Assembly: GCA_903901055.1 (NCBI GenBank)
Contig: CAIUPO010000008.1
Span: forward strand, 4,799-68,798
Length of the DNA: 64,000 nucleotides
From: an uncultured Bacteroidota bacterium
GTDB taxonomy: Bacteria; Bacteroidota; Bacteroidia; JABEUT01
Direction: 5' to 3'
Positions 21,474-62,429 of the stretch are shown piece by piece (the stretch's first letter is position 1; each line of letters starts with the position of its first letter). Both the position numbers and the translations under genes were made by a program. Under the pieces are notes generated by a model that made no database searches, was not told the origin of the DNA, and saw only the letters and a list, made by a program, of their open reading frames with translations.

Positions 21474-21492
21474 CATTAAGTATACCACAAAT

Positions 21493-21526
21493 AAAAAATC
21501 CCGATGATTACTCACCGGGATTTTTT
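21493..21526. terminator. Bidirectional rho-independent terminator (AAAAAATCCCG-loop-CGGGATTTTTT)
   Basis: A perfect 11-bp inverted repeat is flanked by A-run and T-run between the convergent genes at 19587..21473(+) and 21551..21865(-). Confidence 0.7.
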
Positions 21527-21550
21527 GTTTTATATAATTATTGGAAAAAA

Positions 21551-21865
21551 TTATTCAGCCGCCTTCTCTTCAGTTGCAGATTCAGCTTCTCCTTCCGCTT
21601 TTTTCTTAGGTTTTGCAGGTGCTTTTTTCTCTCCTTCAACTTTTGGTTTTTTAGGAGCTGCTGCTTTTTTAGGTTTTGCAGCCTTTACTTCAGCACCTTC
21701 TGCTACAGGCAGTTCAAATAATGTTTCTTCAACAGGTGCTGTTACTACCTTTTTAGGTTTTGCTTTAGGCACAAATGCAGGAATACCACTCTTTTGAGGG
21801 CGCGCCTTTCCAAATGAACCTCTCCATATCTTTCCTTTACGTGACCTTTTGTCTCCTTTTCCCAT
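21551..21865 (-). CDS. 30S ribosomal protein bTHX homolog with a long Lys/Ala/Pro-rich histone H1-like C-terminal extension
   Basis: The N-terminus MGKGDKRSRKGKIWRGSFGKARPQK closely matches Thermus Thx ([24 protein letters not shown]). The remaining roughly 75 aa are AKPKK/AAPKK repeats. Confidence 0.6.
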   Translation of the reverse strand: MGKGDKRSRKGKIWRGSFGKARPQKSGIPAFVPKAKPKKVVTAPVEETLFELPVAEGAEVKAAKPKKAAAPKKPKVEGEKKAPAKPKKKAEGEAESATEEKAAE

Positions 21866-21965
21866 GATTTTTTATTTTTAAGAGTGCCAAAGGTAATAAG
21901 AATTATGAATAGTGGGTTATGAATTGTAATTACAATGTAATATATCCTTAGATATGAATATTCGT

Positions 21966-22631
21966 TTATAGTTTACTTATAAAATCCTTTTCAAGCAACT
22001 CAACTTTCGGGATGGTATTCCTAAGCCATTGCAGGCGCAGGTCTTCCTTGTCTGAATCACTAAGTTGCCAGGATATGTTCTCTTTTCTTAACCTTGATGA
22101 AAGGGCGTACATACTTAAAGCAGCAGCAACTGAAATATTAAAACTTTCAGTAAAACCCAGCATTGGTATTTTAACGAACATATCTGCTTTCGCCTCTAGT
22201 TCTGCTGTTGCGCCTCGCATTTCCGTTCCGAAGAACAAGGCGAGCTTATTGGTTAATGGTACGTTTTCGATATTGTAACTATCCTTATGAAGTGAAGTTA
22301 CCGCAATTGTGTAGCCGCTTGCCTTTAATGCGCTGACACAGTTATTAAGACTTTCTTTCCCATCATTGTATCTATTTAATGTCAGCCATTTTTCTGAACC
22401 TAGCGAGACATCCGGATTATAGGTGTATTTATTGGTGTTTTCAATAATATGCACATCTTGTATTCCGAAACAATCACAGGAACGCAGCACTGCACTTGCA
22501 TTATGAGGCTGGTAAATATTTTCAAGACCAATTGCAATATGCCGGGTGCGGTTAACAAGCACTTCCTCGAAACGCTTCAAACGGGCTTCGGTTACAAAGC
22601 CTGAAAGGTATTTAACAAGTTCAGTATTCAT
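21966..22631 (-). CDS. SpoU/TrmH-family RNA 2'-O-methyltransferase
   Basis: This is a SPOUT-class fold (HIAIGLENIYQPHNASAVLRSCDCFGIQDVHII...LFFGTEMRGA...IPMLGFTESFNISVAAAL). Confidence 0.75.
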   Translation of the reverse strand: MNTELVKYLSGFVTEARLKRFEEVLVNRTRHIAIGLENIYQPHNASAVLRSCDCFGIQDVHIIENTNKYTYNPDVSLGSEKWLTLNRYNDGKESLNNCVSALKASGYTIAVTSLHKDSYNIENVPLTNKLALFFGTEMRGATAELEAKADMFVKIPMLGFTESFNISVAAALSMYALSSRLRKENISWQLSDSDKEDLRLQWLRNTIPKVELLEKDFISKL

Positions 22632-22637
22632 TAAAAA

Positions 22638-23606
22638 TTACGCAAACCTCGGCGCAGACCTCAATAATTCCTCTGGCGATAAGGCTTTGAAATAATCATA
22701 GGTAATCTTCAACCCTTCGGCCCGTGATATTTTTGGTTCCCATCCTAATAGTTTTCTGGCAAGTGTAATATCGGGCTGGCGTTGCTTAGGGTCGTCTTTT
22801 GGCAAGGCGGTGTGAATTATCTTTTGATCGCTTCCTGTCAGCTTTAATATTTCCTCAGCAAATTCATTAATGGTTATTTCGGCAGGATTGCCAATATTGA
22901 CAGGTGAGGAGTAGTCACTCAATAATAGGCGATAAATTCCTTCCACTAAATCGGATACATAACAGAATGACCTAGTCTGGCTACCATCACCAAAAGCGGT
23001 GAGAGGTTCGCCACGTAATGCCTGACCAATAAAGGTTGGCAGTACCCGTCCGTCGTTCAGGCGCATTCTTGGGCCATAAGTATTAAAGATACGGACAATT
23101 CTTGTTTCAACTTTATGAAAAGTATGGTATGCCATGGTAATTGCTTCCTGAAAGCGCTTGGCCTCATCGTACACACCACGAGGGCCTACTGGGTTCACGT
23201 TGCCCCAATATTCTTCGGTTTGAGGGTGTACTAAAGGGTCACCGTAAACTTCGGAAGTTGAGGCAACAAGAATCCTTGCATTTTTAGCCTTTGCAAGTCC
23301 TAATAAGTTGTGGGTTCCAAGCGAGCCAACTTTAAGGGTTTGAATGGGTATTTTCAAGTAATCAATCGGGCTGGCCGGAGAGGCAAAGTGAAGTATGTAA
23401 TCCAATTCACCGGGTACATGCACAAATTTGGAAACATCATGGTGGTAGAACTCAAAATGTTCAAGGGAAAAGAGGTGTTGAATATTGCGCAAATCACCTG
23501 TAATTAGGTTATCCATGCCAATAACATGGTAACCTTCTTTAATAAATCTATCACAAAGATGTGAGCCTAAGAACCCCGCTGCGCCTGTAATTAATACTCT
23601 TTTCAT
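22638..23606 (-). CDS. UDP-glucuronate decarboxylase (UDP-xylose synthase), short-chain dehydrogenase/reductase fold
   Basis: The N-terminus is the Rossmann fold [15 protein letters not shown]. The catalytic YDEAKR is present. The gene is about 320 aa with overall colinearity to UXS enzymes. Confidence 0.75.
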
Positions 23607-23614
23607 TTGTTTTG

Positions 23615-24925
23615 TTATTGGATTAAATCCTTTCTGCCAATGCTAAAGTAGGAAAATCCCTCTTGCTGCATTTGTTCAATAGAATATAAGTTCCTACCGT
23701 CAAAAACAACGGGTTTATTTAAGTGTTTTTTCATAATAGCAAAATCCGGTGTACGGAATTCGCTCCACTCAGTGGCTATTACAAGGGCATCCGCACCCTG
23801 CAATGCCTCATATTCATTGGAAGCAAAATAAACTTTGCTGCCATAAATTCGGTTTACGTTTTCCATTGCAGCAGGGTCGTAAGCGCTTACAGTTGCTCCT
23901 TGTTTTAACAATTCATCAATAATAACTAATGCCGGAGCTTCACGAATATCATCGGTATCGGGCTTAAATGCCAATCCCCATAAGGCTATTTTTAATCCTT
24001 TCAAGTCTTTGAAATGGCCCTTTAATTTTGAGATAAGAGAATGTTTCTGGGTTTCATTAACCTGCATAACTGACTTCAGAATACTAAAATCGTAGTTGTA
24101 TTCGCCTGAAGATTGCACCAATGCTTTTACATCTTTTGGAAAACAGCTACCTCCGTATCCGATACCCGGAAATAAAAATCGTTTGCCAATACGTTGGTCG
24201 GCGCCAATACCAATACGAACCATATCAACATCGGCACCCATCTTTTCGCAAATGTTGGCTATCTCATTCATAAATGAAATTTTTGTGGCAAGGAATGAGT
24301 TAGCTGCGTATTTGGTAAGCTCGGCAGAGCGTTCGTCCATAATATAAACGGGATTGCCTTGTCTTACGAAAGGTTTGTAAAGATCTTCCATTACTTTTTT
24401 AGCACGGGCAGATGAAGTTCCAATAACGACTCTGTCCGGTTTCATGAAATCATCTACCGCAAATCCTTCCCTCAGGAATTCCGGATTTGATACCACATCA
24501 AAATCAACTTTGCAGTTTGCTGCAATTGCTGCCTTCACCTTTTCTGAAGTGCCAATAGGAACTGTACTTTTATCAACAATAACCTTATAAGATGTAAGGA
24601 TTTTTCCAAGTTCAGTTGCCACGCTCAACACGTAAGATAAGTCGGCTGAGCCATCTTCATTCGGTGGAGTGGGGAGGGCAAGAAAAATAATATCTGTCTT
24701 TTCAACTGCATCTGCCAGATTGGTGGTAAAGCTAAGCCTCTTAGCCCTAAGATTGCGCTCAAAAAGCGTATCAAGGTCGGGTTCATAAATTGGCATTATA
24801 CCATTTTGCATAGCCTCTACTTTGGCTTTATCAATATCTACACAAATTACATGGTTGCCGGTTTCTGCAAAGCAGGTTCCTGTTACCAGACCAACGTATC
24901 CCGTTCCTACAATACTTATATTCAT
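23615..24925 (-). CDS. ugd: UDP-glucose 6-dehydrogenase
   Basis: The N-terminus is [16 protein letters not shown]. The catalytic Cys context is GGSCFPKDV. The gene is 436 aa and sits 8 nt upstream of the UXS gene. Confidence 0.9.
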
Positions 24926-48785: not shown

Positions 48786-50108
48786 ATGAATAAATTTTTA
48801 CCCTTAGTAGGCTTGTTGGTAGCGCCTTTAGTTGGTTTTTCACAAGCCAGAATTGTAATAAACGGAACCTCGCTTGTTACTATTGTTGAGAATGGTGGCA
48901 TTAAAGCAAAACCTATTTATATAGATGTTAATAATTCTGCGACCAACGCAATTACTACTGTTGGAACAAAAGGATGGATTGTTTCTGAAAGTGAATTTAA
49001 TATGGTAAAGTGGGACATTAGTACCACTACCGGTGCTTATACAGTGCCATTCGGATATAGCAGCCTTTATTCAATTCCATTAACGCTAACACTTGGTGCA
49101 GGTGCAAGTGCAGGTGGTAGTATTTTATTTTCTACCTACCATACACCAAACCTGAATTCAGCGTCTCAACCTTCGGATGTTAATAATATGGGACCAATTA
49201 TTCCTGCTAACAGCCAACCTACACCTATAGATGACTCTTACCAGGTAGTTGACCGTTTTTGGATTATGGATGCATCGAGCTATGGAACAAAACCAGCCAT
49301 TACACAAACTGTATTTACATTTTTAAGCACTGCCAGTACTGCCAGTGAAGTTGGCGGATTGAATGTTGCAGGTATTGAACCTTTATTATTAGCACAACGT
49401 TATAATACAACCATTCCTACTAAAGGTAGCTGGGGAGATTGGTTAGGTTTAGCCGGACAGGCTGGCCCAACCGGTGTAACTAACACTGACAAGAGCGGAC
49501 CTCTTACTGCTGCTAACTTTTATAGATCATGGACATTATCCAGTTCAAATTCTCCATTGCCAATTGAAATAAGTTCTTTCACCGATATTTGTAATAATGG
49601 TGCAGCACTTGTTCAATGGACATCACAATCTGAACTTAACAATGACTATTACACATTGAAAAAGACAACCGATAATGTTCATTTTGAAACTGTAGGAACT
49701 TTGAAGGGAGCAGGTACTACAAGTATGCCAACCAATTATTCAATTACTGATAATAATCCATTCCCTGGTGTGTCTTACTACTTATTGTATCAAACTGATA
49801 TTGACCAAACCACTACCCTTGTAAAAACTATTCCATTCCAAGGATGCGGTGGTCCTGCAGCTACAACTATTACTGCATTCAATACTTCAAATTATATAGA
49901 AGTTCAAATCAATTCAATTGCTGCTGATGAGTATGACATGACTTTGACCAATATGCTTGGCCAAACATTATTAAATGAACATCACTCAGTTGTAGTTGGA
50001 AGTAACGAAATTCAGTTGAGCAATACTCTTAGCCCAGGTATATATATCCTTAACCTGAAAGGCAATATGGGTTCCCTTACCAAAAAGCTTGCAATAGGAG
50101 TAAAGTAA
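48786..50108 (+). CDS. Secreted hypothetical protein with a T9SS type A C-terminal sorting domain
   Basis: It has a signal peptide. The C-terminus is a Por_Secre_tail (LTNMLGQTLLNEHHSVVVGSNEIQLSNTLSPGIYILNLKGNMGSLTKKLAIGVK). Confidence 0.65.
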   Translation: MNKFLPLVGLLVAPLVGFSQARIVINGTSLVTIVENGGIKAKPIYIDVNNSATNAITTVGTKGWIVSESEFNMVKWDISTTTGAYTVPFGYSSLYSIPLTLTLGAGASAGGSILFSTYHTPNLNSASQPSDVNNMGPIIPANSQPTPIDDSYQVVDRFWIMDASSYGTKPAITQTVFTFLSTASTASEVGGLNVAGIEPLLLAQRYNTTIPTKGSWGDWLGLAGQAGPTGVTNTDKSGPLTAANFYRSWTLSSSNSPLPIEISSFTDICNNGAALVQWTSQSELNNDYYTLKKTTDNVHFETVGTLKGAGTTSMPTNYSITDNNPFPGVSYYLLYQTDIDQTTTLVKTIPFQGCGGPAATTITAFNTSNYIEVQINSIAADEYDMTLTNMLGQTLLNEHHSVVVGSNEIQLSNTLSPGIYILNLKGNMGSLTKKLAIGVK

Positions 50109-50236: not shown

Positions 50237-51352
50237 ATGCCGATGAGAAACAAAAATTACATGCGAATAATAGGATTACTTAGTGTATGTCTTCTGACTT
50301 CCTTTCAAATTACTACAGCTCAAAATTCCGTACTTGTTTTAAAAGGAAATGTATTAACCCCAGTTCCTGCTTCAAAAGCCACCTCACAAACGCCGGTTAA
50401 AAAAAATCCACATGCAGATTCGATAGCTGCGGCAAAAAAGGCTGCATCAAAACAAGCGCCGGTTGTAAAGGCACCTGCACCTAAGCCAGCTCCTGTTGTT
50501 AAAGCTCCGGCACCAAAGCCAGCTCCTGTAGTTGTTAAGGCACCAGCCCCGAAACCCGCTCCAGTAGTAAAAGCACCTGCTCCAAAACCAGCTCCGGTTG
50601 TTGTGAAAGCACCAGCCCCGAAACCTGCTCCAGTTGTAAAAGCTCCGGCTCCAAAGCCAGCTCCGGTTGTTGTAAAAACACCGACAAAAGTTGTGCCTGT
50701 AAAAACTCCTGTTTTAGCTCAGGTAGATTATATTAAAAGAGTTCAATTCGTTCATAACCTAGTGTCAAGAAAGATACCACAAACTGTTATTGATTCAATT
50801 GGAGAAATAAACCACGACCTCCTGGATTCAATACGCAGGGAAATTACCAAGCATAAAGACAAGGACAGTATTAACTTCCTGAAAGCTGCCTTGGCAAATG
50901 GAGTGAATGACAGTATTACCCTTTTTAATATTGATAACCTTGTGAACTCTACGGCTGTGAATACTCCGGCAGACGGTACAGGATCATTAAATACATCATG
51001 TATTGATATTTCAACCCAGGCTCCGATTGATTCTGTAAAGGTGGAAATATTCAGCCATGATTCTTTAATTTTAACTACGTTTACTGATAACCAAGGGTCT
51101 TCGAAAATACCGAACATGAAACCAGGTGAGTATAATCTGAATTTTTCAAAGAATAATTATACCCCGTTTTCTGAAAGGTGGATAAAAGTAACAGCAGGTA
51201 ATCCTACCTACGTTCAAATGCCACTAACAGAAATACCAAGGTTTTATCTGCCTAAATTCTCTGCACAGATTTGGGCAATGATTGCAGTTGGCTTAATTTC
51301 AGTATTCGTGCTGATTTATTCCATCATCCGCAGATTGGGCAGGGTTGCCTGA
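50237..51352 (+). CDS. Cell-surface protein with proline-rich APAPKPAPVV(V)K tandem repeats, a CarboxypepD_reg-like beta-sandwich and a C-terminal TM anchor
   Basis: It has a signal peptide. There are 3.3 copies of a 23-aa repeat. The beta-sandwich region is VKVEIFSHDSLILTTFTDNQGSSKIPNMKPGEYNLNF. The C-terminal helix is IWAMIAVGLISVFVLIYSII. Confidence 0.6.
   Translation: MPMRNKNYMRIIGLLSVCLLTSFQITTAQNSVLVLKGNVLTPVPASKATSQTPVKKNPHADSIAAAKKAASKQAPVVKAPAPKPAPVVKAPAPKPAPVVVKAPAPKPAPVVKAPAPKPAPVVVKAPAPKPAPVVKAPAPKPAPVVVKTPTKVVPVKTPVLAQVDYIKRVQFVHNLVSRKIPQTVIDSIGEINHDLLDSIRREITKHKDKDSINFLKAALANGVNDSITLFNIDNLVNSTAVNTPADGTGSLNTSCIDISTQAPIDSVKVEIFSHDSLILTTFTDNQGSSKIPNMKPGEYNLNFSKNNYTPFSERWIKVTAGNPTYVQMPLTEIPRFYLPKFSAQIWAMIAVGLISVFVLIYSIIRRLGRVA
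50456..50678 (+). repeat. In-frame 69-bp tandem repeat (about 3.3 copies) encoding (APAPKPAPVVK)(APAPKPAPVVVK)
   Basis: The direct DNA repeats are visible at 50461-50690. Confidence 0.8.
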
Positions 51353-51473
51353 TTTGAATCATTCCGATTATTCCCAAAAAGCAAGTCTGCGTTAAAAATT
51401 AATGTAGAAATCCTGAAAACTATTTTTCGTTGGAAAAATTCGGTTAAATTTGTGCCACACTGAATATTACTTT

Positions 51474-52790
51474 ATGAAAAAAATAGCTGTTTCACTTATC
51501 GGAGTTACATTATGCCTGCAAGGCTTTGCCCAAAGCGGTAAAATTTCAAGCGCTGCAACTCATCTTGATTATTACCGGAGTCACCGCGATGACACCACAG
51601 AACTGGCTTCCGGCAGAGCTGCAATTGATGAAGCCGCCATAAATGAAAAGACAAAAGATGAACCTAAAATGCATCTTTACAGAGGGGAGATATATCTGGA
51701 ATGGTTTAACATGCATTTGAATAAATTAGAATCGAAATTATTACCGGCAGGGGCTACAGATAACAAGTCAAAAAATAAAGCTTATGCGGATGCATTCACC
51801 CAAATGGATACAAGTTCAATTTGTATTGCAACCAACTCATTCATTAAGGTAATACAATTAGTACCTAAAGATTATTATGCCAAGGAAGCCTTAAGCAATG
51901 AAAACCTTCCAAAGTGCTTGTTAATTCTTGAAAACAAAGCTTTGGTTGAGTTTAACAACAAACATTATCCTTCTGCACTGGCATTATATAAAAAGGCCAT
52001 TTCAGTTTGCCCTGTTTTAAATATTACTGACACCGCAAAGACATACAAAGAAAATATTGAAATGGCTGCCTTTTCAGCTGACAGAGCCGGAAATAATGCT
52101 GAGGCAATTATCTATTACCAAAAAACAATGGATTTGAAATATGACAAATCAACTCCATACCGTTTATTATCTGCTTTGTACCTTAAGCAGAATGACAGCA
52201 CAAAAGCCTGGGGTGTTATAGAAAAAGGCCGTACTGATTATCCGGATGATGAACAGATTATAATTCTGGAAACAAACTATTTTATAAACAGGCACGACTT
52301 TGCAAAAGCAGAAAGCAACCTTAAACTAACTATAAGCAAAGTAGAAGCAAGCCCAAATAAAGATTCAAAAGTTTTAACAAGTTTGTACACCAACCTGGGT
52401 AATATATACGACAGAAGGGCAAATCCTAAGGGCGTTACAGGGGATGATACAACTAAGCCTGCAGACTATGAAACCTTATTTGGAAATGCTGAGACCTACT
52501 ACAAAAAGGCGCTTGAACTTGACCCGGCTAATTTTGATGTATTGTTTGTAACAGGTGCTTTATATTACAACAGAGCTGTAAGTATTGCTAAAGATGCAGA
52601 TAAACTCCCTTTGAATGCTACCGAAAAGTACAATAAATTAATTGCAGATTCTAAAGGATATTTTGCAAAAGCACAACCTTATTTTGAAAGCGCCCATAAA
52701 GTGAAACCGGATGATGTTTCAAACACCAATGCGTTGAAGCAGGTTTATTCCAGCACAGGGCAAAATGATAAGGCGGAAGGTTTAAAGTAA
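51474..52790 (+). CDS. TPR-repeat protein, secreted
   Basis: The signal peptide starts at the internal Met (MKKIAVSLIGVTLCLQGFAQ). TPR-like helical repeats run throughout. Confidence 0.55.
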   Translation: MKKIAVSLIGVTLCLQGFAQSGKISSAATHLDYYRSHRDDTTELASGRAAIDEAAINEKTKDEPKMHLYRGEIYLEWFNMHLNKLESKLLPAGATDNKSKNKAYADAFTQMDTSSICIATNSFIKVIQLVPKDYYAKEALSNENLPKCLLILENKALVEFNNKHYPSALALYKKAISVCPVLNITDTAKTYKENIEMAAFSADRAGNNAEAIIYYQKTMDLKYDKSTPYRLLSALYLKQNDSTKAWGVIEKGRTDYPDDEQIIILETNYFINRHDFAKAESNLKLTISKVEASPNKDSKVLTSLYTNLGNIYDRRANPKGVTGDDTTKPADYETLFGNAETYYKKALELDPANFDVLFVTGALYYNRAVSIAKDADKLPLNATEKYNKLIADSKGYFAKAQPYFESAHKVKPDDVSNTNALKQVYSSTGQNDKAEGLK

Positions 52791-53337: not shown

Positions 53338-53456
53338 ATTGTTTGTATTGTTGGTATATAGCTGAAAGCAAAGATATAAAATAAAACATGATTGTTTTTC
53401 CGGAAGCACACTGTTTTGTAAATCATTTATTTATATACTTGTACTTTGCCAATTGT

Positions 53457-54401
53457 ATGAAAAACTTTTTTTTCTGCAAAAAACATTTTCTAAAAGCAGG
53501 TTCTTTTTATCTGGCGAGTTTAATGCTGTTCTCTTCCTGCAACTCCGGCAACAAAGTTGTTTCCTCGTTTGGTAAAAGGAAATATACAAAGGGTTTTTTC
53601 TTTAATGTTCCATCTATAGCTAAAAAACAAACCAGCGCGAAGCCCGAAGAACTTGTAAATATTGCAAAAACGGGTAATGCAAAGACCCTGATAAAAGCAA
53701 AAAACGATGGGAGGGAAGCTACCTCTTTAATAGTTGGACTAACCGCAAAAGCGCAGAACACTAATGGAAGCAGGGAATTGACTAAATCAAATGGGCAAAA
53801 AGCAATAAAGGTTGAAAAGTTCATAATTGAAAGGGGGGTAGAGAGCTTTAGTCAAAAATATGCCCCTGCAATTGATACCGCTAAAGTATCGACCCAACAG
53901 GCGTTGAATCCTCAAAAGCATCATTGGGTTGCTAAAATTATTTTGTCTGTAATTGGGCTGTCGGCCTTAATTTTTGGGATAATTACCGGGCAGGGGTATG
54001 TGATAAATGGGTATACAATTGACGAACCGACACCCATATTTATTTCTTTGCTTGGCTTATTGGTTATAGTTATTGCATTCACCTTAATAGGGAAGGGTGG
54101 TTCACCCAATAATCAAAATCAGTATTCACAGGCTCGATATACGGATGTTCCTTTTCATCCGAATGCCGATATGGGCAGGAGCTATGATGCTCCAGCACAT
54201 AATTACGAATCGGGTGGAAACCCAACCCAAAATCATACGAACGGATTGAAAACAGCCGGAGGTGTTATTTTGGTTATACTGGGAATCTTAGGGTTAATAT
54301 TCTTCGGTTCGGCTGCCATAGCATTTCCTAGTTTATGGCCCTTTGCGGTACTTGCACTTGGCGTCCTAATAGGTGGAATATTAATGTCATCTTACCATTA
54401 G
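53457..54401 (+). CDS. Member of the paralog family (lipoprotein signal, conserved SSFGKRKYTKGFFF motif, low-complexity linker, C-terminal TM helices). This is the long variant with four TM helices.
   Basis: The N-terminus is MKNFFFCKKHFLKAGSFYLASLMLFSSCNSGNKVVSSFGKRKYTKGFFFNVP. The conserved box CTTGTACTTTGCC lies upstream. Confidence 0.6.
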   Translation: MKNFFFCKKHFLKAGSFYLASLMLFSSCNSGNKVVSSFGKRKYTKGFFFNVPSIAKKQTSAKPEELVNIAKTGNAKTLIKAKNDGREATSLIVGLTAKAQNTNGSRELTKSNGQKAIKVEKFIIERGVESFSQKYAPAIDTAKVSTQQALNPQKHHWVAKIILSVIGLSALIFGIITGQGYVINGYTIDEPTPIFISLLGLLVIVIAFTLIGKGGSPNNQNQYSQARYTDVPFHPNADMGRSYDAPAHNYESGGNPTQNHTNGLKTAGGVILVILGILGLIFFGSAAIAFPSLWPFAVLALGVLIGGILMSSYH

Positions 54402-54402
54402 G

Positions 54403-56040
54403 TTATTTCCCCGACTTTTTAAGCGCTAATTGAACTGCTTTATACGCATTAATAGTGCCACCGCTTATACATAAATCAGTGTAAGAAACCAAAACAGGTG
54501 TTTTGGTGCCACGAGGTGCAGGTTTGGGAACCAAAGCGGTAATCTTAGTAACCGATTCCATTAATATTTCTCTCACTTGTTTTGCCGAAAGTTTCGGGAA
54601 ATACTCACGGATAAGGGCAGCTACACCGGCCACGCATGGAGAGGCCATACTTGTTCCGTTGAAATAGGCATATCCGCTATCAGGAATTGAGCTATAAATT
54701 TTAACACCCGGCGCAAAAAGGTCAACAGAGTTTTTACCATAATTACTGAAAGAACCCGGTTTACCGTTTACATCTGATGCACCAACTTCAATCCAGTTTT
54801 TGGCTTGTTTATGCGAATTTTCATATCGACGGGTCGGGAAATTGTCCACAGAATCATTGTTTTGGTTGTCGTTTCCGGCAGCATGAACTAAAAGTACGTC
54901 ATGTTTCTCGGCATACTTTACAGCTTCATCAACGGCTTTCTTGTTATAAGACCATCCTTTACCGAAACTCATATTGATAACCTTAGCGCCATTATCAACA
55001 GCATAACGGATTCCATTGGCAACATCCTTATCGCGCTCATCACCATCAGGTACAACCCTTACACCCATAATTTTAACATTATCGGCAATACCTTCCTGGG
55101 TACTGGCAACGCCTGTGCGGTTTCCGCTTATAATTCCACTAACGTGGGTTCCATGCCCGGCGGTTTTGCCATTCAAATCATTATTACCATAATACTTTTG
55201 AGTTATATCAGCATAATTGTCGCCAACGGTTGGGCGAGGGTCAAAATTTACATTGTATTGATAAAGCAAAAAGGTATTTAAATAATCCAATCCACCCTTA
55301 ATCTGTTTCTTTATGCTATCGGCCGTAACTCCCTTCATAAAAGATGATAACATTCCGAAATTACGTCCTAAACGTTCCTTGGTTTTAATCATTACACTGT
55401 CGGTTGGTTTGTATGCATCCATGTCTTCCTGGTTGAAGTCGTTTTTACCTATAACCACTTTAATCTTATCAATATTGTCCATGAAATCTTTCAGTCCGTC
55501 ATATTGCTTTTGATAGGCACCTTGTTTGGATTCGAACGCCTTTTTAACCTTTTGGTATTTGGCGTATTCCAACTTGTCTTTTTTAGAAAGCTTGTCAGCA
55601 TTGCTAGTCGTAGCATATTTTTTACCCAATTCCCTGTAAAGACGGGTTAATTCAATGTTATCCTTATCAACAGAACTGTCTTTTCCGCCAATAAAATCCC
55701 AGCCATTAACATCGTCAATGTAACCATTGTGGTCATCGTCAGCCTTGTTACCGGCAATTTCTTTCGGGTTTACCCAAATATGATTCTTTAACGCAGGATG
55801 GTTTACACATACACCATTATCAATTACCGCCACAATTACCGTAGTAGATTGTACACCTTTAGATTTTAAGAGTTCTATGGCCTTGTCCGAGCCGGTTCCA
55901 TAAACGCTGTCTTGTTCAATGCTTTTGTTTTGCCAGTTTTTAGCCGGGTTTTGTGCATTGGCATTGATTGAGAGGATTCCTAATGCTAAAAGGGCGCTTA
56001 ATTGACGTAGATGTTTGATCATACAATATATTTTTTGCAA
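54403..56040 (-). CDS. S8-family subtilisin-like serine peptidase, secreted
   Basis: It has a signal peptide and the Asp/His/Ser catalytic triad motifs (VAVIDNGV, HGTHVSGIISG, GTSMASPCVAGVAALI). Confidence 0.85.
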   Translation of the reverse strand: MQKIYCMIKHLRQLSALLALGILSINANAQNPAKNWQNKSIEQDSVYGTGSDKAIELLKSKGVQSTTVIVAVIDNGVCVNHPALKNHIWVNPKEIAGNKADDDHNGYIDDVNGWDFIGGKDSSVDKDNIELTRLYRELGKKYATTSNADKLSKKDKLEYAKYQKVKKAFESKQGAYQKQYDGLKDFMDNIDKIKVVIGKNDFNQEDMDAYKPTDSVMIKTKERLGRNFGMLSSFMKGVTADSIKKQIKGGLDYLNTFLLYQYNVNFDPRPTVGDNYADITQKYYGNNDLNGKTAGHGTHVSGIISGNRTGVASTQEGIADNVKIMGVRVVPDGDERDKDVANGIRYAVDNGAKVINMSFGKGWSYNKKAVDEAVKYAEKHDVLLVHAAGNDNQNNDSVDNFPTRRYENSHKQAKNWIEVGASDVNGKPGSFSNYGKNSVDLFAPGVKIYSSIPDSGYAYFNGTSMASPCVAGVAALIREYFPKLSAKQVREILMESVTKITALVPKPAPRGTKTPVLVSYTDLCISGGTINAYKAVQLALKKSGK

Positions 56041-56114
56041 ACTTAGGAATAACTTTTAGTGGGAGATGTTAATGAAATGCTAAATGCCTATACTTGTAAA
56101 TAAAATTAAATAGT

Positions 56115-56330
56115 ATGCCATGTAAATTCAAACCCGGAGATACAGTTTGTAAAACTACTGCAAGGGATATCAAGATGATTGTTGAGAAATGTACAATAGT
56201 AGATGGGGAATTGAATACTACCTGGCGTATTACCTGCAAGAGATACGATGCCGTTAGCGAGGGATGGCTGCAGGCAGGAGTTTACAGGCAAGATGAACTG
56301 GAATTAATACCAAACCCGAATCTGGGTTAG
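56115..56330 (+). CDS. Small hypothetical protein (DUF2158/YodC-like?)
   Basis: It is 71 aa. KFKPGDTVCKTT...MIVEKC resembles small DUF2158 proteins. The match is weak. Confidence 0.3.
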   Translation: MPCKFKPGDTVCKTTARDIKMIVEKCTIVDGELNTTWRITCKRYDAVSEGWLQAGVYRQDELELIPNPNLG

Positions 56331-56443
56331 CTTCATTTTACACTTTCAAATGTTTATTCTGCTTGAATCTGCGCTATGCGCTATAAATAACCCTGTTTCA
56401 AATTTATATTTGACACTTTTTTACACTTTTACAGGATGTAAGT

Positions 56444-56466
56444 GTAGGGTATACAGTATACCCTAC
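56444..56466. terminator. Perfect 10-bp palindrome GTAGGGTATA-cag-TATACCCTAC between convergent small ORFs
   Basis: A T-run (GGCTTTTCT) lies 3' on the plus strand. Confidence 0.3.
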
Positions 56467-56702
56467 AGCGGCTTTTCTATAAGTTCCCTAAGCTTGTTGT
56501 TTATGGCAATGCTGGTTTCGTCTTCCTTGAGATTAGCAACCGTTTTGGTGGTCAAACGGATATTGATTGCCAAAGCTTCGTGAGGCATTTTATAGGTTTC
56601 CTCGGTAAAAGCATATAGTTTCTTTAAGCGTTCTTTCATTTCGGGTAACGCCATTATGGCATCTTTTAATTTCTTGTCCATGGTTTGATTATTGGATTGC
56701 AA
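56463..56702 (-). CDS. Small hypothetical protein
   Basis: It is a 79-aa ORF with no recognisable domain. Confidence 0.3.
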   Translation of the reverse strand: MQSNNQTMDKKLKDAIMALPEMKERLKKLYAFTEETYKMPHEALAINIRLTTKTVANLKEDETSIAINNKLRELIEKPL

Positions 56703-57053
56703 ACTTAAGCCTTTTATGAACAGTTTAGTTTCTTTCGTTTCATCGGCTTAGTTACGAACTTAATATATCGCCTGGCAATACGGAGGGTTTTCTTATAATC
56801 TTTGCAACTAACTCTATGAGCCAATTTAAGGCAATCAAGCCGGATTTGGATTTCTTTAAGCATGGCGATTGATTTACAAGGTGCCTGTAAAGATACAAAT
56901 TTATTCAATCCAATAGTCTTATAATAAACATTATGTTAAATAGATTAATAAAATGGTATTCAATTACTTAGTATGTGTATTATAAGTAGATTGATTTATA
57001 ACTCAATTATTTTTGGTATACTTAATATTGCAACAATATTTTAAGGTAACCCC

Positions 57054-57437
57054 CTACCTGCCGGCATGTTTATCCCAATAAAGAAAATAACCGGAATCTT
57101 TTTCGAGTAACTTAATATCCCATTCAAAGTTTCCGCTTTCAACCATCTCCACTCCGGTTCCACAATACGTGTGTCTGGCGGAATCCCTAAATTTCTTTTT
57201 GTTCTTAATTATTCCGCCGGGTTGGATTATAAACGGAAACTCATCCTGCATTTCAATTCCCTGAATGCTTAAAACTAACTTTGAACTGTCTTTTGGAATC
57301 TTTCCAATGTAATTCTTACTAATAGTAACAGAGTCGAGATCAAAGCCCGTTTTATTATACACCCTTATTTTAAGGCTTTGAGCATTTCCTTTAAGTGAAA
57401 CCAATGCAATTAAACATATTATTAAAAGCCCCTTCAT
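57054..57437 (-). CDS. Small secreted hypothetical protein, paralog of 57434..57835
   Basis: The signal peptide is MKGLLIICLIALVSLKGNAQ. It shares the LKIRVYNKTGFDLDS and CGTG...G.FEWDIKLLE motifs with the upstream paralog. Confidence 0.5.
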   Translation of the reverse strand: MKGLLIICLIALVSLKGNAQSLKIRVYNKTGFDLDSVTISKNYIGKIPKDSSKLVLSIQGIEMQDEFPFIIQPGGIIKNKKKFRDSARHTYCGTGVEMVESGNFEWDIKLLEKDSGYFLYWDKHAGR

Positions 57438-57835
57438 TTCCCATGCATCTCCCAAGCCAGTTTTAACCCCTCCGGCCGTTCGATTATTTTAATGTCAAAT
57501 TCATAAGCTCCTGAGGTAATCTCGGTAGTTCCTGTATTGCAAACAGGGCTGTACACTCCCCCTTTCAGCCAATGGTAACCTTTCTTAGCCCAATTGTTCA
57601 TCCGGATACTACCCCAGGGCGCTAACATAGATGGAAATCCATTTAATAACTGGACTGACTTCAAATTGGAGATTGTATAAGTGCTATCATTCTGCAGTTT
57701 CCCCACATATATATCTCCTAAATACAAGGAATCTAAAAGATAGCCCGTTTTATTATACACCTTAATCCGAAGGAATTGAGCAGAACAATTCATGAAGAGG
57801 ATAACAAATAAAGAGAGTATCAGTTTTTTTTTCAT
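57434..57835 (-). CDS. Small secreted hypothetical protein, paralog of 57054..57437
   Basis: The signal peptide is MKKKLILSLFVILFMNCSAQ. It carries the LRIKVYNKTGYLLDS motif. A 4-nt overlap with the next gene suggests an operon. Confidence 0.5.
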   Translation of the reverse strand: MKKKLILSLFVILFMNCSAQFLRIKVYNKTGYLLDSLYLGDIYVGKLQNDSTYTISNLKSVQLLNGFPSMLAPWGSIRMNNWAKKGYHWLKGGVYSPVCNTGTTEITSGAYEFDIKIIERPEGLKLAWEMHGK

Positions 57836-57848
57836 GTAAGTCCCCTAT

Positions 57849-58514
57849 TCAAGAAGCTAATGCGTTTAACCAAAGCACCAGATAAACGATAAACATAATT
57901 AAGAAAACGAAACTTAATACAGCAAAAATGCAACCAAATTCCCCTTGGGTGGTGGTGGCTGTGGCCCAGTCAGTCGTTCCAAATAATGCGCCGCAAATGA
58001 AAAATAAGCCAAGCAAAACAATCCACAGCGTTAAGTATTTCCCTTTTTTAGAATCGTCGTGCTTGTAAATATGGTCATTATGACCTGCATAAGGGTCGTT
58101 TAAGGAGTTCTCTTTTTGAGAAATAGTTGTAGTTGTAAATGTATTTGTGCTTTTTGCAATGGCTGTTGCCTGTTGTACTCCTTTTTTATCAGTGGTTTCA
58201 TTCGCCCCCGCAGTTGATGTCATTTCTTTAAAAAGGGCTTTACCCAACCTTGCTGTTCGCTTAATAAATGAAAGGGTTTCTCCCGTCTCCTTTGCCATGT
58301 TGGATTCAGTATTTACAGTAATATCAGGGCCTCCGCTAGTATAGGCTGTATTCACTTTGGGAACAGGTTCAAAAAAATGGCCCTTGGTATATTTCCTTTT
58401 TCCAAATGAAGTGACAGTATTATAGGTTGTGCAATATGAAAACAACACAACTGTTAATAATAAGCAAAGGAGTTTAAAATAAGTCCCCGGCTTAATAAAG
58501 TGGTTGGAATCCAT
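57849..58514 (-). CDS. Paralog family member (signal/lipobox, TSFGKRKYTKGHFF, low-complexity linker, C-terminal TM hairpin)
   Basis: LLCLLLTVVLFSYCTTYNTVTSFGKRKYTKGHFFEPVPKVNTAY. NDPYAGHNDHIYKHDDSKKG precedes two C-terminal TM helices ending ...ILWL. The upstream box is TTGTACTAAAA. Confidence 0.6.
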   Translation of the reverse strand: MDSNHFIKPGTYFKLLCLLLTVVLFSYCTTYNTVTSFGKRKYTKGHFFEPVPKVNTAYTSGGPDITVNTESNMAKETGETLSFIKRTARLGKALFKEMTSTAGANETTDKKGVQQATAIAKSTNTFTTTTISQKENSLNDPYAGHNDHIYKHDDSKKGKYLTLWIVLLGLFFICGALFGTTDWATATTTQGEFGCIFAVLSFVFLIMFIVYLVLWLNALAS

Positions 58515-58565
58515 TGTTTAATGAAATTTTAGTACAACGAACTAATAATGGTTTCTTACCCTTTC

Positions 58566-59240
58566 CTAGGAGGATAATGACACCACCCAAAGTATAAAGA
58601 ATACTATTGTACCAATAAGCGAAAGCAGCAGTAAAAGCCCGAAAATACAACCTGTACCGGCGGTAGAGTTGTTATTTACATTGGCTGTATCGGCCCAGTT
58701 TACAAACAAAAGAACCAACAGAAGCGAAAGGGCAAGGCAAATAAGCCATCCGGCTAAAAAAGTTCCCTGCTTTGAATCGTCGTGCTTATAAACATGGTTA
58801 TTCTGCCCTACATAAGGGTCGTTGGAGGAGCTCTCTTTCTTCGAAACGTTTTCTGTTGCAACAGGGCTAGTACTTTTTGCAATGGTTGCGGCCTCCTCTA
58901 TTGCTTTTTTATGGGTACTTTCCTTTACAGTAGCAGTAGTTGCCGGAGCGGTAAAAATGGCTTTCACCGCATTTGTGGTGTTCGTAATCAGGCTTTTATT
59001 AAAGCTAACTTCATTCTGAGGGTTGGCTTCCGATTTTACGGTTGTATTCTGGCTGCCTGCATTGTATGCAGTATTAATTTTAGGTACCGATTCGAAAAAA
59101 TGGCCTTTGGTGTATTTCCTCTTTCCAAAGGAAGAAGCCACATTATTATAGGTTGTACAATATGAAAACAGTACAACTGTAAGGGATAAACAAAGGAATT
59201 TTGCAAAATTCCCGGCCTTGAAAAAATGGTTTGAACTCAT
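58566..59240 (-). CDS. Paralog family member
   Basis: FLCLSLTVVLFSYCTTYNNVASSFGKRKYTKGHFFESVPKINTAY. NDPYVGQNNHVYKHDDSKQG is followed by a TM hairpin. The upstream box is TTGTACTTTAGCC. Confidence 0.6.
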   Translation of the reverse strand: MSSNHFFKAGNFAKFLCLSLTVVLFSYCTTYNNVASSFGKRKYTKGHFFESVPKINTAYNAGSQNTTVKSEANPQNEVSFNKSLITNTTNAVKAIFTAPATTATVKESTHKKAIEEAATIAKSTSPVATENVSKKESSSNDPYVGQNNHVYKHDDSKQGTFLAGWLICLALSLLLVLLFVNWADTANVNNNSTAGTGCIFGLLLLLSLIGTIVFFILWVVSLSS

Positions 59241-59399
59241 TAATTAGTAGTGTTTAAGTGGCTAAAGTACAAAACTTATTTAATCTGCAATAAATTTTTA
59301 TTTGAATAGCAAGCCAATCTTAATTCCCTTAGCCTCAAATAAAAAAGGGCTTTGAGTTTTTATACCCAAAGCCCCTTTTAATAGTGCTATTATGAATCC

Positions 59400-60107
59400 T
59401 TACTTGGAAATATCAACCAACCAAAGGATGAAGAACACAATAGATACAATAAAGCATATCCATCCGATTAGGCCAAAAAGTACCGCTAATCCGAAACTGC
59501 CCGCACTACCGGTAGTAGCAGTTCCAACTGCAAAAACAATTTCCAGCAAAATACATATCAGCCAAATAGCAAGGAAAAGCAAACACATTTTTAAATAGTG
59601 GTTCATGCCAGAATCACTACTGCTGCTGCCATGCTCATTATATCCTGCTTGCGAATTAGTGGAGTTTTCTTTCAAGGAAACATTGTTACTGCTTAGTGAA
59701 AGTGTAGTTGAACCGGATGAGATTGAAAGCCCGCTTGATTTAGACAAGTTAATATTCAACAAACCATGCTTTGCTTTGGTAACTGAATTGGTTGCAGCCA
59801 CTGGAGCGGTTGCTTTGTTATCAGAAGTTGCAACGGTTGTGGTATTAGAATTAAATTTTTGAACAGCAGGGGTGTTTTTAGTATCCACACCTTTAGGTTG
59901 TGCAATTGCTAAAGCAGGGCCGGCAGGTTTATAATTGGTTTTAACTTTCGCAACCGGGTCAGAGAAATGCCCATGGGTATATTTCCTCTTTCCAAAGGAA
60001 GAGGCTACTTTATTGGAGGATGTGCAGGATGCTAAAAACCCTACAGTTACAAAGACAAGCGCTGCAGGGACAAGGTTTCTCAACTTCGAAGAGATGGATG
60101 TTTTCAT
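59400..60107 (-). CDS. Paralog family member
   Basis: LASCTSSNKVASSFGKRKYTHGHFSDPVAKVKTNY. The linker is Ser/Thr/Ala-rich. The C-terminal TM hairpin ends ...FFILWLVDISK. The upstream box is TTGTACTTTAGCC. Confidence 0.6.
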   Translation of the reverse strand: MKTSISSKLRNLVPAALVFVTVGFLASCTSSNKVASSFGKRKYTHGHFSDPVAKVKTNYKPAGPALAIAQPKGVDTKNTPAVQKFNSNTTTVATSDNKATAPVAATNSVTKAKHGLLNINLSKSSGLSISSGSTTLSLSSNNVSLKENSTNSQAGYNEHGSSSSDSGMNHYLKMCLLFLAIWLICILLEIVFAVGTATTGSAGSFGLAVLFGLIGWICFIVSIVFFILWLVDISK

Positions 60108-60189
60108 TCTGGGTGTTTTAATATTTTATTGGGAGGCTAAAGTACAATTTTTTTGAAATGGAATACAAATGGCAACGGTTACTGTTTTA

Positions 60190-60858
60190 TTAAATTGAAA
60201 CAAGCCACAAAATAAGGTATATCACTCCTACTACGCCAAATAGGATTGCTCCCCATAACATAAGGCAGCCCAAGCAACCGCTGCCACCTAAATTTGCCAA
60301 GAGCAGCAGCAGGTAAAACGTCATGGCTAAAAGTAAGCAAGAAAGCGCATAAATAAAGCGAGTACCGGATCTTGCTGATTTCCCTTCATCATAGCTTGAA
60401 CCGCTAATTTCATTTGAATTATCTTGTTTGGCATTAATTGTTTCAGTAAAGGAACTCCTTGCTTTATCCAGAAATGGAGGTTTGCTTAAAAATAAAGCTC
60501 CTGAAGATATGGCTGCAATAATTGGTGTGATCTTATGTGTAAAGGCAACTTTGTTTTCTGTTGGCATTTTTAACAGGGTATAGTTTGAATCAAAAGTGGA
60601 ACCAACTCTTCTATCAGTTGCAATCTTGATGGCCTCCCCCCCTTTTGTTTCATTGGAAATAGAAATGGGTGTACTTCCAGGATTAAATTTCGTCCTGACT
60701 TTTCCGATAGGGTCGGAAAAATGGCCCTTGGTATACTTTCTCTTTCCAAAAGAAGCTGTTTTTATTGAAGAGGTACAAAAGGATAACAGGTTAACCACAC
60801 AAAACAACAAGAGTAGGTAAAATACTTTTTTACTGTTGTCCAAATAGTGAGATTTCAT
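60190..60858 (-). CDS. Paralog family member
   Basis: LLSFCTSSIKTASFGKRKYTKGHFSDPIGKVRTKF. The C-terminal TM hairpin ends ...IYLILWLVSI. The upstream box is TTGTACATTG. Confidence 0.6.
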   Translation of the reverse strand: MKSHYLDNSKKVFYLLLLFCVVNLLSFCTSSIKTASFGKRKYTKGHFSDPIGKVRTKFNPGSTPISISNETKGGEAIKIATDRRVGSTFDSNYTLLKMPTENKVAFTHKITPIIAAISSGALFLSKPPFLDKARSSFTETINAKQDNSNEISGSSYDEGKSARSGTRFIYALSCLLLAMTFYLLLLLANLGGSGCLGCLMLWGAILFGVVGVIYLILWLVSI

Positions 60859-61136
60859 AAAGGGTATTATTTATCAAAATTAAGATGACAATGTACAATT
60901 ATTATTAAATGACCAATTGAACCGATAAAAAGAATGTTTCAACAGCACATTCCCTCTGTTCATCTATTTTTCTTTTGAATGCGTTGATTCAGTTGGTAAT
61001 TTAAGGTTAGTAAAAACCTATTCTATACCAATATGTGAATAATGGAAAATTACCATGAGATTATATAAGAGCCATGGTTTTAAGGGAAGCTAACTTGCAA
61101 ACTAAAATCAAATAAATCACTTTAACACCTACCATT

Positions 61137-61766
61137 ATGAAACCTTCACACCGTACTTTCGCACTTTACACGGCATTTATGCTTTGTATTACCCCTGCGG
61201 TCTTTAGTCAGAGTGGTTCCGATGAGACCATATTTGGTAAAGGCTCAAATGTAATAAGCCTTGGCGTTGGAATTGGTGGAGCCTATACCTATTATGGCGA
61301 TGGCTATACTTCTACCCCTAATTTTGTAATCTCTTATGATAATGGCACATTTGGCAATGTTGGGCCTGGCACAATTAGCCTAGGTGCACTATTCGCATAC
61401 AAGGGAATAGCCTATAGCTATACCGATTTTTATTCCCGTTATAATTACGACCAAAAATGGAACTACTATATCCTCGGTGTTCGTAGCGCTTATCATTTAA
61501 GTATTCCAAGTGTACCAAGGTTCGATCCATACATTGGCATTATGCTGGCTTATTATGATATAAGCTATAAAGAGACTAGCACCGACCCGTTTTTTAATGT
61601 ACCCGGAAGTCCCTATTATTATTACTATTCCAATAGCTACGCAAGTTACATGGCTTTCAGTCTTTATATAGGTGCCAGGTATTTTGTAAGCGACCATATA
61701 GGCTTCTGGCTCGAGCTTGGATATGGCTATTCAAATGCAGCACTCGGCATAAGTTTCAAGCTATAA
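61137..61766 (+). CDS. Outer-membrane beta-barrel domain protein (Tyr/Gly-rich)
   Basis: It has a signal peptide. Amphipathic Y/G-rich strands alternate, and the C-terminus ends with an aromatic or hydrophobic residue (LGISFKL). Confidence 0.55.
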   Translation: MKPSHRTFALYTAFMLCITPAVFSQSGSDETIFGKGSNVISLGVGIGGAYTYYGDGYTSTPNFVISYDNGTFGNVGPGTISLGALFAYKGIAYSYTDFYSRYNYDQKWNYYILGVRSAYHLSIPSVPRFDPYIGIMLAYYDISYKETSTDPFFNVPGSPYYYYYSNSYASYMAFSLYIGARYFVSDHIGFWLELGYGYSNAALGISFKL

Positions 61767-61778
61767 TCAGAAGGTTTT

Positions 61779-62429
61779 ATGAAATCATTCAGGTTTTTTC
61801 TGGTTTTAGTAACAGCGCTTTTAAGCGGAAACAAAGGGATAGCACAAACAGAGATTAATGATGATTATTATAAACCGGCAAAGAGTCGACCTGTTTATTC
61901 AGAAAGCTCAAACCTGATTTATGCCGGAATTGGAGAGGGCGGATATTACCCCTATTCCGGATTAAGATATACCCAGAAACCCAATATCACTTTAATTTAC
62001 GAACGTGTTATATTCAAACACTTAGGCCCTGGAACATTAAATGCAGGGCCCTTACTTTCATTTAAAAATATTGCAAGCCAGTATTTAGATTATAATACAG
62101 GATTTAAATATGAACAGCGTTGGAATTATTATCACATAGGGGCCCGACTGGCCTACAATTTACATATTTTTCCGGGTAATTCAATTGTGCCTTATGCAGG
62201 TGCTATGATAGGCTACTATATCACCGATTTTAAATTTAGCAGTAATGACCCTAATTATTCCGATCCAACTGACCCCGCTTACTATCTGACAACGAATAGA
62301 TACCCCGATTTTTTTGCCATGAGTATTTTAGCCGGCATTCGCTCTACAATGGGTTACCATACAAGTGTTTGGCTGGAACTTGCTTATGGTTATTCTTCAG
62401 TTTCATTTGGTGTTTGTTATAGCCTGTAA
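61779..62429 (+). CDS. Outer-membrane beta-barrel domain protein, paralog of the upstream gene
   Basis: It has a signal peptide and the same strand pattern (WLELAYGYSSVSFGVCYSL). It lies 12 nt downstream of its paralog. Confidence 0.55.
   Translation: MKSFRFFLVLVTALLSGNKGIAQTEINDDYYKPAKSRPVYSESSNLIYAGIGEGGYYPYSGLRYTQKPNITLIYERVIFKHLGPGTLNAGPLLSFKNIASQYLDYNTGFKYEQRWNYYHIGARLAYNLHIFPGNSIVPYAGAMIGYYITDFKFSSNDPNYSDPTDPAYYLTTNRYPDFFAMSILAGIRSTMGYHTSVWLELAYGYSSVSFGVCYSL

Follow-up and report, generated by a model that had tools for sequence, protein, structure and literature searches.

The glycine-zipper lipoproteins OsmB and SlyB are built in the order lipobox, short linker and helical hairpin, and bacterial lipoproteins in general, as substrates of signal peptidase II (SPII), carry an n-region, a hydrophobic core and a Cys to be lipidated. 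In the Bacteroidota, the surface export signal of lipoproteins (LES) consists of at least two D/E residues within six residues of the Cys (PMC12578637). Here we describe a group of five open reading frames (ORFs; W1–W5) and a box, KRKYxKG, that they share, all encoded in a 64,000-nucleotide stretch of contig CAIUPO010000008.1 from an uncultured Bacteroidota bacterium; the whole stretch is referred to below as the window. These five ORFs constitute one family of small envelope membrane proteins, each made of an N-terminal cassette (signal sequence, Cys and box), a spacer and a membrane hairpin. The order of parts is that of OsmB and SlyB, whereas the present family differs in its strongly hydrophobic hairpins, its long disordered spacer and its conserved box; moreover, the Gly-zipper and Rick_17kDa_Anti models did not match the window proteins at E<=1. 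As in SPII substrates, an n-region and a hydrophobic core precede an invariant Cys in the context L/F-[AS]-[SGA]-C across the family, but integral C-terminal helices are added and the box that follows lies outside any described lipoprotein signal. The logic is that of the LES, namely a short conserved element after the lipid-anchor Cys and ahead of unrelated passenger domains, as expected of a sorting signal; in contrast to the acidic LES, however, the box is basic and aromatic, lies at +9 to +22 and accompanies inner-membrane-type hairpins.

As the earlier note on this DNA had claimed, four head-to-tail genes on the minus strand and one gene on the plus strand are all present in the list of ORFs:

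53457..54401, plus strand: W5 (314 amino acids (aa)), with a signal peptide ending in ...LFSSC28, box SSFGKRKYTKGFF, spacer and about four C-terminal helices
57849..58514, minus strand: W1 (221 aa), with ...FSYC28, box TSFGKRKYTKGHF, spacer, a His/Tyr/Asp box and a two-helix hairpin ending in VLWLN
58566..59240, minus strand: W2 (224 aa), whose closest paralog is W1 (about 50% identity)
59400..60107, minus strand: W3 (235 aa), with the canonical lipobox LASC and box SSFGKRKYTHGHF
60190..60858, minus strand: W4 (222 aa), with ...LSFC28 and box ASFGKRKYTKGHF, the most divergent copy
53562..53600, plus strand: box DNA of W5 (residues 36-48)
58374..58412, minus strand: box DNA of W1 (residues 35-47), repeat family D1
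59097..59135, minus strand: box DNA of W2 (residues 36-48)
59964..60002, minus strand: box DNA of W3 (residues 36-48)
60718..60756, minus strand: box DNA of W4 (residues 35-47)

The reading frame of W5 is open already from 53388, and the ATG at 53457 yields a normal signal peptide. W5 belongs to a different subfamily from the tandem copies W1–W4.

In the protein alignment, the Cys is residue 28 in all five copies and is one of eleven invariant columns (Cys28, S36, F37, G38, K39, R40, K41, Y42, T43, G45 and F47), which bears out the suggestion that a nearly invariant basic motif follows the Cys by about eight residues. The shared box, (S)SFGKRKYT(K/H)G(H/F)F, begins 8-9 residues past the Cys, and the box peptide can be written as VASSFGKRKYTKGHFFEP. 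Because the profile E-values to relatives reach down to 1e-57 to 1e-77, this sharing is far beyond chance. Every copy has K/R within residues 2-14, followed by a hydrophobic stretch of 11-15 residues up to Cys28; of the lipobox that had been ascribed to all five, the terminal Cys is present throughout, but the pattern [LVIF]-[ASTVI]-[GAS]-C fits W3 (LASC) and W5 (FSSC) and not W1, W2 or W4.

Searches with a word index returned only 5-18 relatives or short fragments, and the impression of a very rare family that they gave was overturned by an exhaustive HMMER search, in which a ten-sequence profile was run against 1.84 billion representative proteins. This search recovered 1358 family clusters at E<=1e-3, 234 at E<=1e-10 and 24 at E<=1e-30, and nearly all matches were full-length, in proteins of 200-240 aa. 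The box, [S/L][F/I][G/S/Q]-K-R-K-Y-[T/N/M]-K-G-[Y/H/F/W]-[F/Y/H]-x-[N/D], is present in 142 of the 154 proteins that we collected; within these 142, the R and the G are invariant, the Y is kept in 140 and the K in 134, and the distance from Cys to Arg is 13 residues in 93 and 15 in 33. The N-terminus of the family has an MKK-type n-region, residue -1 of the Cys is S, G or A in 122 of 139 profile-selected proteins, and positions +2 to +5 are rich in S/T/N/G. What follows the cassette and spacer is interchangeable: in a Pfam census of 137 representatives, the hairpin was Pmp3/YqaE in 22, DUF4190 in 10 and TM2 in 7, the others being unclassified and including the type found in the window. Of the 154 proteins, 35 passed a pattern filter for the window-type ending, although a few of these align poorly; in most of them, helix 1 contains ...(H)HYL..C.., the turn is Gly-rich and the sequence closes with ...VFFILW(L/I)V. 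In the 1358 clusters, the cassette reads as a lipobox Cys, a gap of 12-15 residues and [F/I][G/S/Q]KRKY[T/N]KG[Y/F/H], with a spacer of approximately 110 residues behind it. Thus, the window locus is an old local expansion of a family that is widespread in the Bacteroidota and that joins the same N-terminal cassette and spacer to Pmp3/YqaE, TM2, DUF4190 or unclassified hairpins. It had been put forward as the most likely undescribed system of the window; with 1358 clusters, some of whose members end in known Pfam hairpins, the family is neither rare nor a local oddity.

As an unbiased test, metagenomes were scanned for DNA able to encode KRKYTKG[Y/F], with the surroundings ignored. Among the 121 matches, approximately 68 were family members and approximately 49 were chance matches, comprising out-of-frame stubs and unrelated proteins (D-Ala-D-Ala ligase, for example). 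All 61 distinct lipobox genes selected in this way have S, G or A at residue -1, and the Cys lies 8-14 residues upstream of the KRKY lysine (12 or 14 residues in 47 of the 61). A hydrophobic hairpin follows downstream in 61 of the 63 selected genes with a complete 3' end, and its first helix begins a median of 111 residues after the box (interquartile range 103-119, with a second mode at 158-184). The length of the spacer in this set is therefore tight even though its sequence is not conserved. Taken together, the fixed spacing from the lipobox, the strict conservation, the length-constrained spacer and the swappable passengers indicate that the box behaves like a signal.

The claim that the motif matches no named family held in searches of Pfam and NCBIfam: no model covers the box in the five window proteins, and in ten diverse relatives only the C-terminal domains are recognized and nothing N-terminal. 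A full-text literature search for the motif and a search for DUF4190 plus lipoprotein returned nothing on the family, which also has no match among PDB sequences or in Rfam; with PADLOC, nothing was found for the five copies or their small neighbours. NCBIfam labelled two relatives as BamJ, an FKBP-type isomerase lipoprotein (PMC12578637). This match is weak and was rejected as spurious, as it spans the signal peptide and low-complexity sequence. The window copies score below the gathering score of Pmp3 (PF01679), TM2 (PF05154) and DUF4190 (PF13828), yet relatives with an identical cassette and spacer end in exactly these domains. The window hairpin resembles them in size and position but forms its own unclassified subfamily (...HYL..C...G.G(C)...VFFILW(L/I)V), and the classical Pmp3, TM2 and DUF4190 families, for their part, lack the lipobox-KRKY cassette. 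The window proteins thus behave as small two-helix membrane proteins that carry a lipoprotein-type leader; what is new is the conserved motif, previously undescribed, on (lipo)proteins of an otherwise ordinary kind, and not a system.

Between box and hairpin, the window copies have a non-conserved, predicted disordered spacer of approximately 85-130 residues. Its identity is 40% for W1-W2 and 11-23% for the remaining pairs, so that a linker described as differing completely between copies is indeed poorly conserved, although not completely different. The C-terminal features attributed to all five copies are likewise more restricted: the NDPYxGxNxHxYKHDDSK box is clear in W1 and W2 but not in the other copies, and the two-helix ending of the ILWLV type applies to the four tandem copies but not to W5, which has about four helices and another ending. 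AlphaFold2, given a ten-sequence alignment (mean predicted local distance difference test score (pLDDT) 55), placed an N-terminal helix at residues 9-30 and a hairpin at 156-223, both at pLDDT of approximately 65-82. In the Pmp3, TM2 and DUF4190 classes, the inter-helix loops contain K/R (for example, ...GIHRFYLG... and ...KNPEKYKGKG...). The Bacteroidota O-glycosylation sequon D[ST][AILVMT] appeared depleted in profile-selected spacers (15 observed versus 36 +/- 5.5, z = -3.9); the depletion was not replicated in the pattern-selected set (z = -0.6) and was dropped as evidence of localization.

The window copies are old. By the Nei-Gojobori method, synonymous divergence (dS) between W1 and W2 is 1.06 in the signal and box, 1.34 in the spacer and 1.61 in the hairpin, with ratios of nonsynonymous to synonymous divergence (dN/dS) of 0.13, 0.37 and 0.30, respectively, and synonymous sites are saturated both in this closest pair and in the more distant ones. 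DNA identity between copies is 61-76%, box included. For W3, a protein encoded elsewhere (P0012, 61% identical) is nearer than any window paralog, and W4 shares 27-32% identity with any other protein. The four tandem copies are therefore ancient duplicates under purifying selection, and the variable middle reflects the relaxed constraint under which the disordered spacer evolves in such old copies and not programmed or positively selected variation.

Family genes are found in several genomic surroundings. A scan of GTDB for FGKRKYTK gave 13 loci, all in metagenome-assembled genomes (MAGs) of uncultured Bacteroidetes/Bacteroidia. Clustering of neighbouring genes defined at least four contexts, which involve, among others, a secreted S8 subtilase located beside W5:

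54403..56040, minus strand: secreted S8 subtilase (PF00082 match, 1.4e-53)
Context A: Pro-rich protein, TPR protein, (181-aa protein), family gene(s) and S8, at W5, L011 and L012
Context A, more distant: gyrA and TPR, then a family array of 4-5 copies, without S8, at L007 and L008
Context B: small outer-membrane-protein-like (OMP-like) paralogs of 209-217 aa and glutamine synthetase III, at W1–W4, L001 (one copy), L003 and L013
Context C: ETF genes, a 495-aa protein, family gene(s) and DUF3098, at L002 (two copies) and L006 (one copy)
Context D: beside a three-gene cluster orthologous to window 21966-24925, at L005 and L015; in the window, this slot lacks a family gene

The position of W5 after the TPR gene is conserved in L011 and L012; the family genes directly follow the TPR gene in L007 and L008, and at W5 the 181-aa gene intervenes. 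In L004, which we assign to context B, the family gene lies beside glutamine synthetase III only. Copy number at the tandem site is four in the window versus one in L001, consistent with the expectation that it would vary between related genomes. One MAG, KR3_bin-0479, has family members at four separate loci; two of its genes (L011, 9956-10570, and L004, 9983-11161) are each split within the spacer, with the N-terminal cassette (94 aa) in one ORF and the hairpin in another, and either frameshifts have turned them into pseudogenes or the low-complexity DNA was misassembled.

We propose, with a probability of roughly 55%, that the proteins are anchored at both ends in the inner membrane and that the box serves as a cassette for targeting or retention and also fixes hairpin orientation. 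The signal peptide would export the N-terminal part and the Cys would be lipidated, because a canonical lipobox is near-universal in the family. The basic and aromatic box would then lie next to the lipid anchor, at the periplasmic surface of the inner membrane, where it would hold the N-terminus in place and, by its placement, set how the hairpin is oriented. The spacer would loop through the periplasm and the hairpin would reside within the inner membrane. An LES is absent, residence in the inner membrane is suggested by the strong hydrophobicity of the helices, and the basic inter-helix loops of the Pmp3, TM2 and DUF4190 classes fit an N-out hairpin and hence a periplasmic spacer and an exported N-terminus. 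The box would accordingly serve as a sorting or anchoring signal for many 'passenger' hairpins, and not as a variable surface element or an enzyme site. Several observations weigh against this proposal. The residue before the Cys is Tyr in W1 and W2 (FSYC) and Phe in W4 (LSFC), which makes a non-canonical SPII site; four to five positive charges at 12-17 residues past the signal-peptide cleavage site are unusual in an exported segment; and AlphaFold2 gives the box and the spacer no structure (pLDDT <50). Crude charge counts around the hairpin (the positive-inside rule) are ambiguous across the family, and the window copies themselves carry K/R in the pre-hairpin flank and have a neutral or acidic inter-helix loop, an arrangement that favours a cytoplasmic spacer. 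The box has also not been seen on hairpin-free lipoproteins, so it is not a general retention signal, and the Pmp3, TM2 and DUF4190 hairpins are themselves of obscure biochemical role.

Some of these observations support the main rival explanation, in which the N-terminal segment is an uncleaved signal anchor, that is, a permanent transmembrane helix, and KRKYxKG is a positive-inside signal. The protein would then be a three-helix inner-membrane protein with its N-terminus out, box and spacer in the cytoplasm and a hairpin running in-out-in. The box, strongly basic with a charge of +4 or +5, sits directly behind the first hydrophobic segment, the window copies have K/R in the pre-hairpin flank and none in the inter-helix loop, and W1, W2 and W4 have Tyr or Phe ahead of the Cys; outside this phylum, small domains of these hairpin types are commonly preceded by cytoplasmic N-terminal extensions. 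However, the Cys is nearly invariant, and the small residue at -1 (61 of 61 and 122 of 139), the MKK n-region and the S/T/N/G-rich positions +2 to +5 are hard to explain without SPII, and the basic loops of the three Pfam classes imply an N-out hairpin. We regard an uncleaved anchor as unlikely. A different fate of the lipidated N-terminus can also be envisaged, in which Lol delivers it to the outer membrane and the hairpin remains behind in the inner one. The length-constrained spacer of approximately 110 residues would then cross the periplasm, and the box would dock beneath the outer membrane or against one of its small proteins. A spacer of tightly clustered length and free sequence would suit such a tether, as would the lack of an Asp-type or acidic signal past the Cys and the small OMP-like paralogs that adjoin family members in the window, L001, L003 and L013. 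This tether is purely inferential, though, and those OMP-like genes are divergent or convergent and not operonic, with an adjacency limited to related genomes; we know of no precedent for Lol extracting a protein with an integral hairpin, and we consider the tether improbable. Similarly, it would be a long shot to regard lipobox-KRKYxKG as an undescribed Bacteroidota envelope sorting signal on doubly anchored proteins with a lipid at the N-terminus, a hairpin and a length-controlled disordered tether of approximately 110 residues, which in its boldest form would have the lipid end in the outer membrane and bridge the periplasm to Pmp3/TM2/DUF4190-type hairpins of the inner membrane.

The two explanations that start from the make-up of the window locus are poorly supported. 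Its conserved N-termini, the variable region that follows, the tandem genes and the nearby S8 protease recall the Vlp/Vsp proteins of Mycoplasma and the leader-core precursors of ribosomally synthesized and post-translationally modified peptides with their subtilisin-type proteases (PatA/G and LanP); unlike these, the window locus has no repeats or switching elements and consists of ancient duplicates encoding long transmembrane proteins, and S8 is not a conserved partner. If the paralogs were diversified S8 substrates cleaved at the dibasic K-R-K within the box, one could account for the adjacency of S8 to a family gene here and in L011 and for its distance of approximately 4 kb from two family genes in L002. 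Yet S8 is convergent with W5, with one base separating the two stop codons, and hence shares no operon with it; L001 keeps S8 (69% identity) right beside a 179-aa gene with no family gene in between; and S8 was found in only 4 of 17 distinct places (16 loci and the window), being absent from L005-L010 and L013-L015, including the 4-5-copy arrays of L007 and L008, while the 1358 clusters occur in many contexts. The idea of a locus wrapped around the S8 peptidase thus does not hold, since S8 belongs to one of at least four contexts; the association is local synteny and not a system, S8 is only a syntenic neighbour of W5, and a substrate role for the family is very improbable. Least credible of all is a phase-variable or polymorphic set of surface lipoproteins, as the earlier note had suggested, whose hypervariable middle would be generated or selected for antigenic or receptor diversity. 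Conserved ends around a poorly conserved middle, the tandem arrangement and short homopolymers in coding DNA (G7 on the minus strand in W4, 60636-60642; T8 in codons 4-6 of W5, 53466-53473) are what such a set might show. The homopolymers, together with an A9 at 57824-57832 at the start of the first of two 133-aa genes, are nevertheless too short to call phase variation, and the whole window has 12 A/T runs of at least 8. Tandem Repeats Finder detected no tandem or simple-sequence repeats in the family genes, and in 53.3-61.1 kb there are no inverted repeats around promoters and no near-identical cassettes; the sole repeats there are box DNA of 61-78% identity, including the inverted-repeat arms I1/I2 (the W5 box versus the minus-strand copies, 73-78%), so this interval holds no template/variable repeat pair. 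No reverse transcriptase, as expected of a diversity-generating retroelement, was found among the 10 + 7 neighbouring ORFs scanned against Pfam, and no gene conversion was found in the window copies. An identical W2 protein occurs in eleven contigs, nine of which were collapsed with the one shown and have mostly the same proteins as neighbours; no strain variation of W2 is seen among the eleven, and about ten contigs from other samples have the same neighbouring genes. Programmed diversity is further opposed by saturated dS and by dN/dS below 1 in every region (0.37 in the spacer). Exposure at the surface finds no support either, as the residues after the Cys (TTYNTV, TTYNNV, TSSNKV, TSSIKT and NSGNKV) include no D/E in any of the five copies, the LES is absent and the C-terminal helices imply residence in the inner membrane.

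Putative expression signals are shared by the window copies. A promoter-like box, with the short form TTGTACTTTAGCC, precedes each of them, and a terminator lies within the array:

53439..53450, plus strand: promoter-like box TTGTACTTTGCC, ending 6 nt before the W5 start codon
59261..59272, minus strand: promoter-like box TTGTACTTTAGC, upstream of W2
60136..60147, minus strand: promoter-like box TTGTACTTTAGC, upstream of W3
60890..60898, minus strand: degenerate promoter-like box TTGTACATT, upstream of W4
58529..58537, minus strand: degenerate promoter-like box TTGTACTAA, upstream of W1
59341..59375, minus strand: intrinsic-terminator hairpin after W3 (15-bp stem, -21 kcal/mol, U-run)

The exact 12-mer TTGTACTTT(A/G)(G/C)C is found before W5, W2 and W3, approximately 20-30 nt from the starts of the latter two; these three exact copies compare with about 0.03 expected by our estimate, and the 12-mer is family-specific within the window and has been retained although synonymous sites are saturated. 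Similar boxes precede relatives in L001 and L004. The usual Bacteroidota -7 box, TAnnTTTG, is present at 14 of 39 other window genes, and a sigma-70 promoter scan was uninformative (32 found versus 24.9 +/- 5.2 expected). No terminator hairpin follows W4 or W2. Because only 13 nt without a terminator separate W1 from the first 133-aa gene, the two 133-aa paralogs (p133a and p133b) are probably co-transcribed with W1, and the array likely forms two transcription units, W4-W3 and W2-W1-p133b-p133a, split by the terminator.

The S8 peptidase, the two tandem small secreted paralogs and the small ORFs that had been placed between W5 and the array are all present. PADLOC gives only generic subtilase matches for S8, and the smaller genes are as follows:

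57054..57835, minus strand: two tandem secreted 133-aa paralogs with signal peptides (57054-57455 and 57434-57835)
56463-56702, minus strand: 79-aa ORF (MDKKLKDAIMALPEMKERL...)

The 133-aa paralogs have no match in Pfam, NCBIfam or PADLOC and, among all loci fetched, were found in this organism only. The 79-aa ORF matches no family in Pfam or NCBIfam and has counterparts of 55-63% identity in L001, L003 and L011, near S8 or family genes. The OMP-like paralogs (window 61137-61766 and 61779-62429, both on the plus strand; L001 9409-12350; L003 664-2161; L013 906-1580) have a signal peptide, are Gly/Tyr-rich and end in ...SFKL or ...CYSL; they adjoin family members in four genomes and have no Pfam match. 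Upstream of W5, a secreted protein that combines APAPKPAPVV(V)K repeats with a CarboxypepD_reg domain and a C-terminal helix (50237-51352, plus strand) is followed by a secreted TPR protein (51450-52790, plus strand); both genes keep synteny with family genes in L001, L011 and L012, and only the TPR gene does so in L007 and L008. A 440-aa protein (48786-50108, plus strand) scores 25.2 bits against the type IX secretion C-terminal sorting domain (PF18962; cut-off 27), a weak match that is consistent with the Bacteroidota origin of the window. Beside the three-gene cluster at 21966-24925, the window encodes a small Lys/Ala/Pro-rich, histone-H1-like ORF (21474-21965, minus strand), and the same slot beside clusters of this type (72-92% identical) is occupied by a family member in L005 and L015.

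In summary, the window copies are ordinary old paralogs, yet they expose a conserved N-terminal cassette for which there is no curated model. This cassette stands at a fixed distance from the lipoprotein Cys in more than 1000 protein clusters, ahead of interchangeable hairpins of obscure function, a pattern that has the appearance of a sorting or anchoring signal. To our knowledge, the rules of lipoprotein retention and sorting at the inner membrane are undefined in the Bacteroidota, and a paper on the Bacteroidota Lol system makes no mention of them. If the box is a signal, it would therefore offer a way into the envelope sorting of this phylum and a unifying annotation for many 'hypothetical' proteins.

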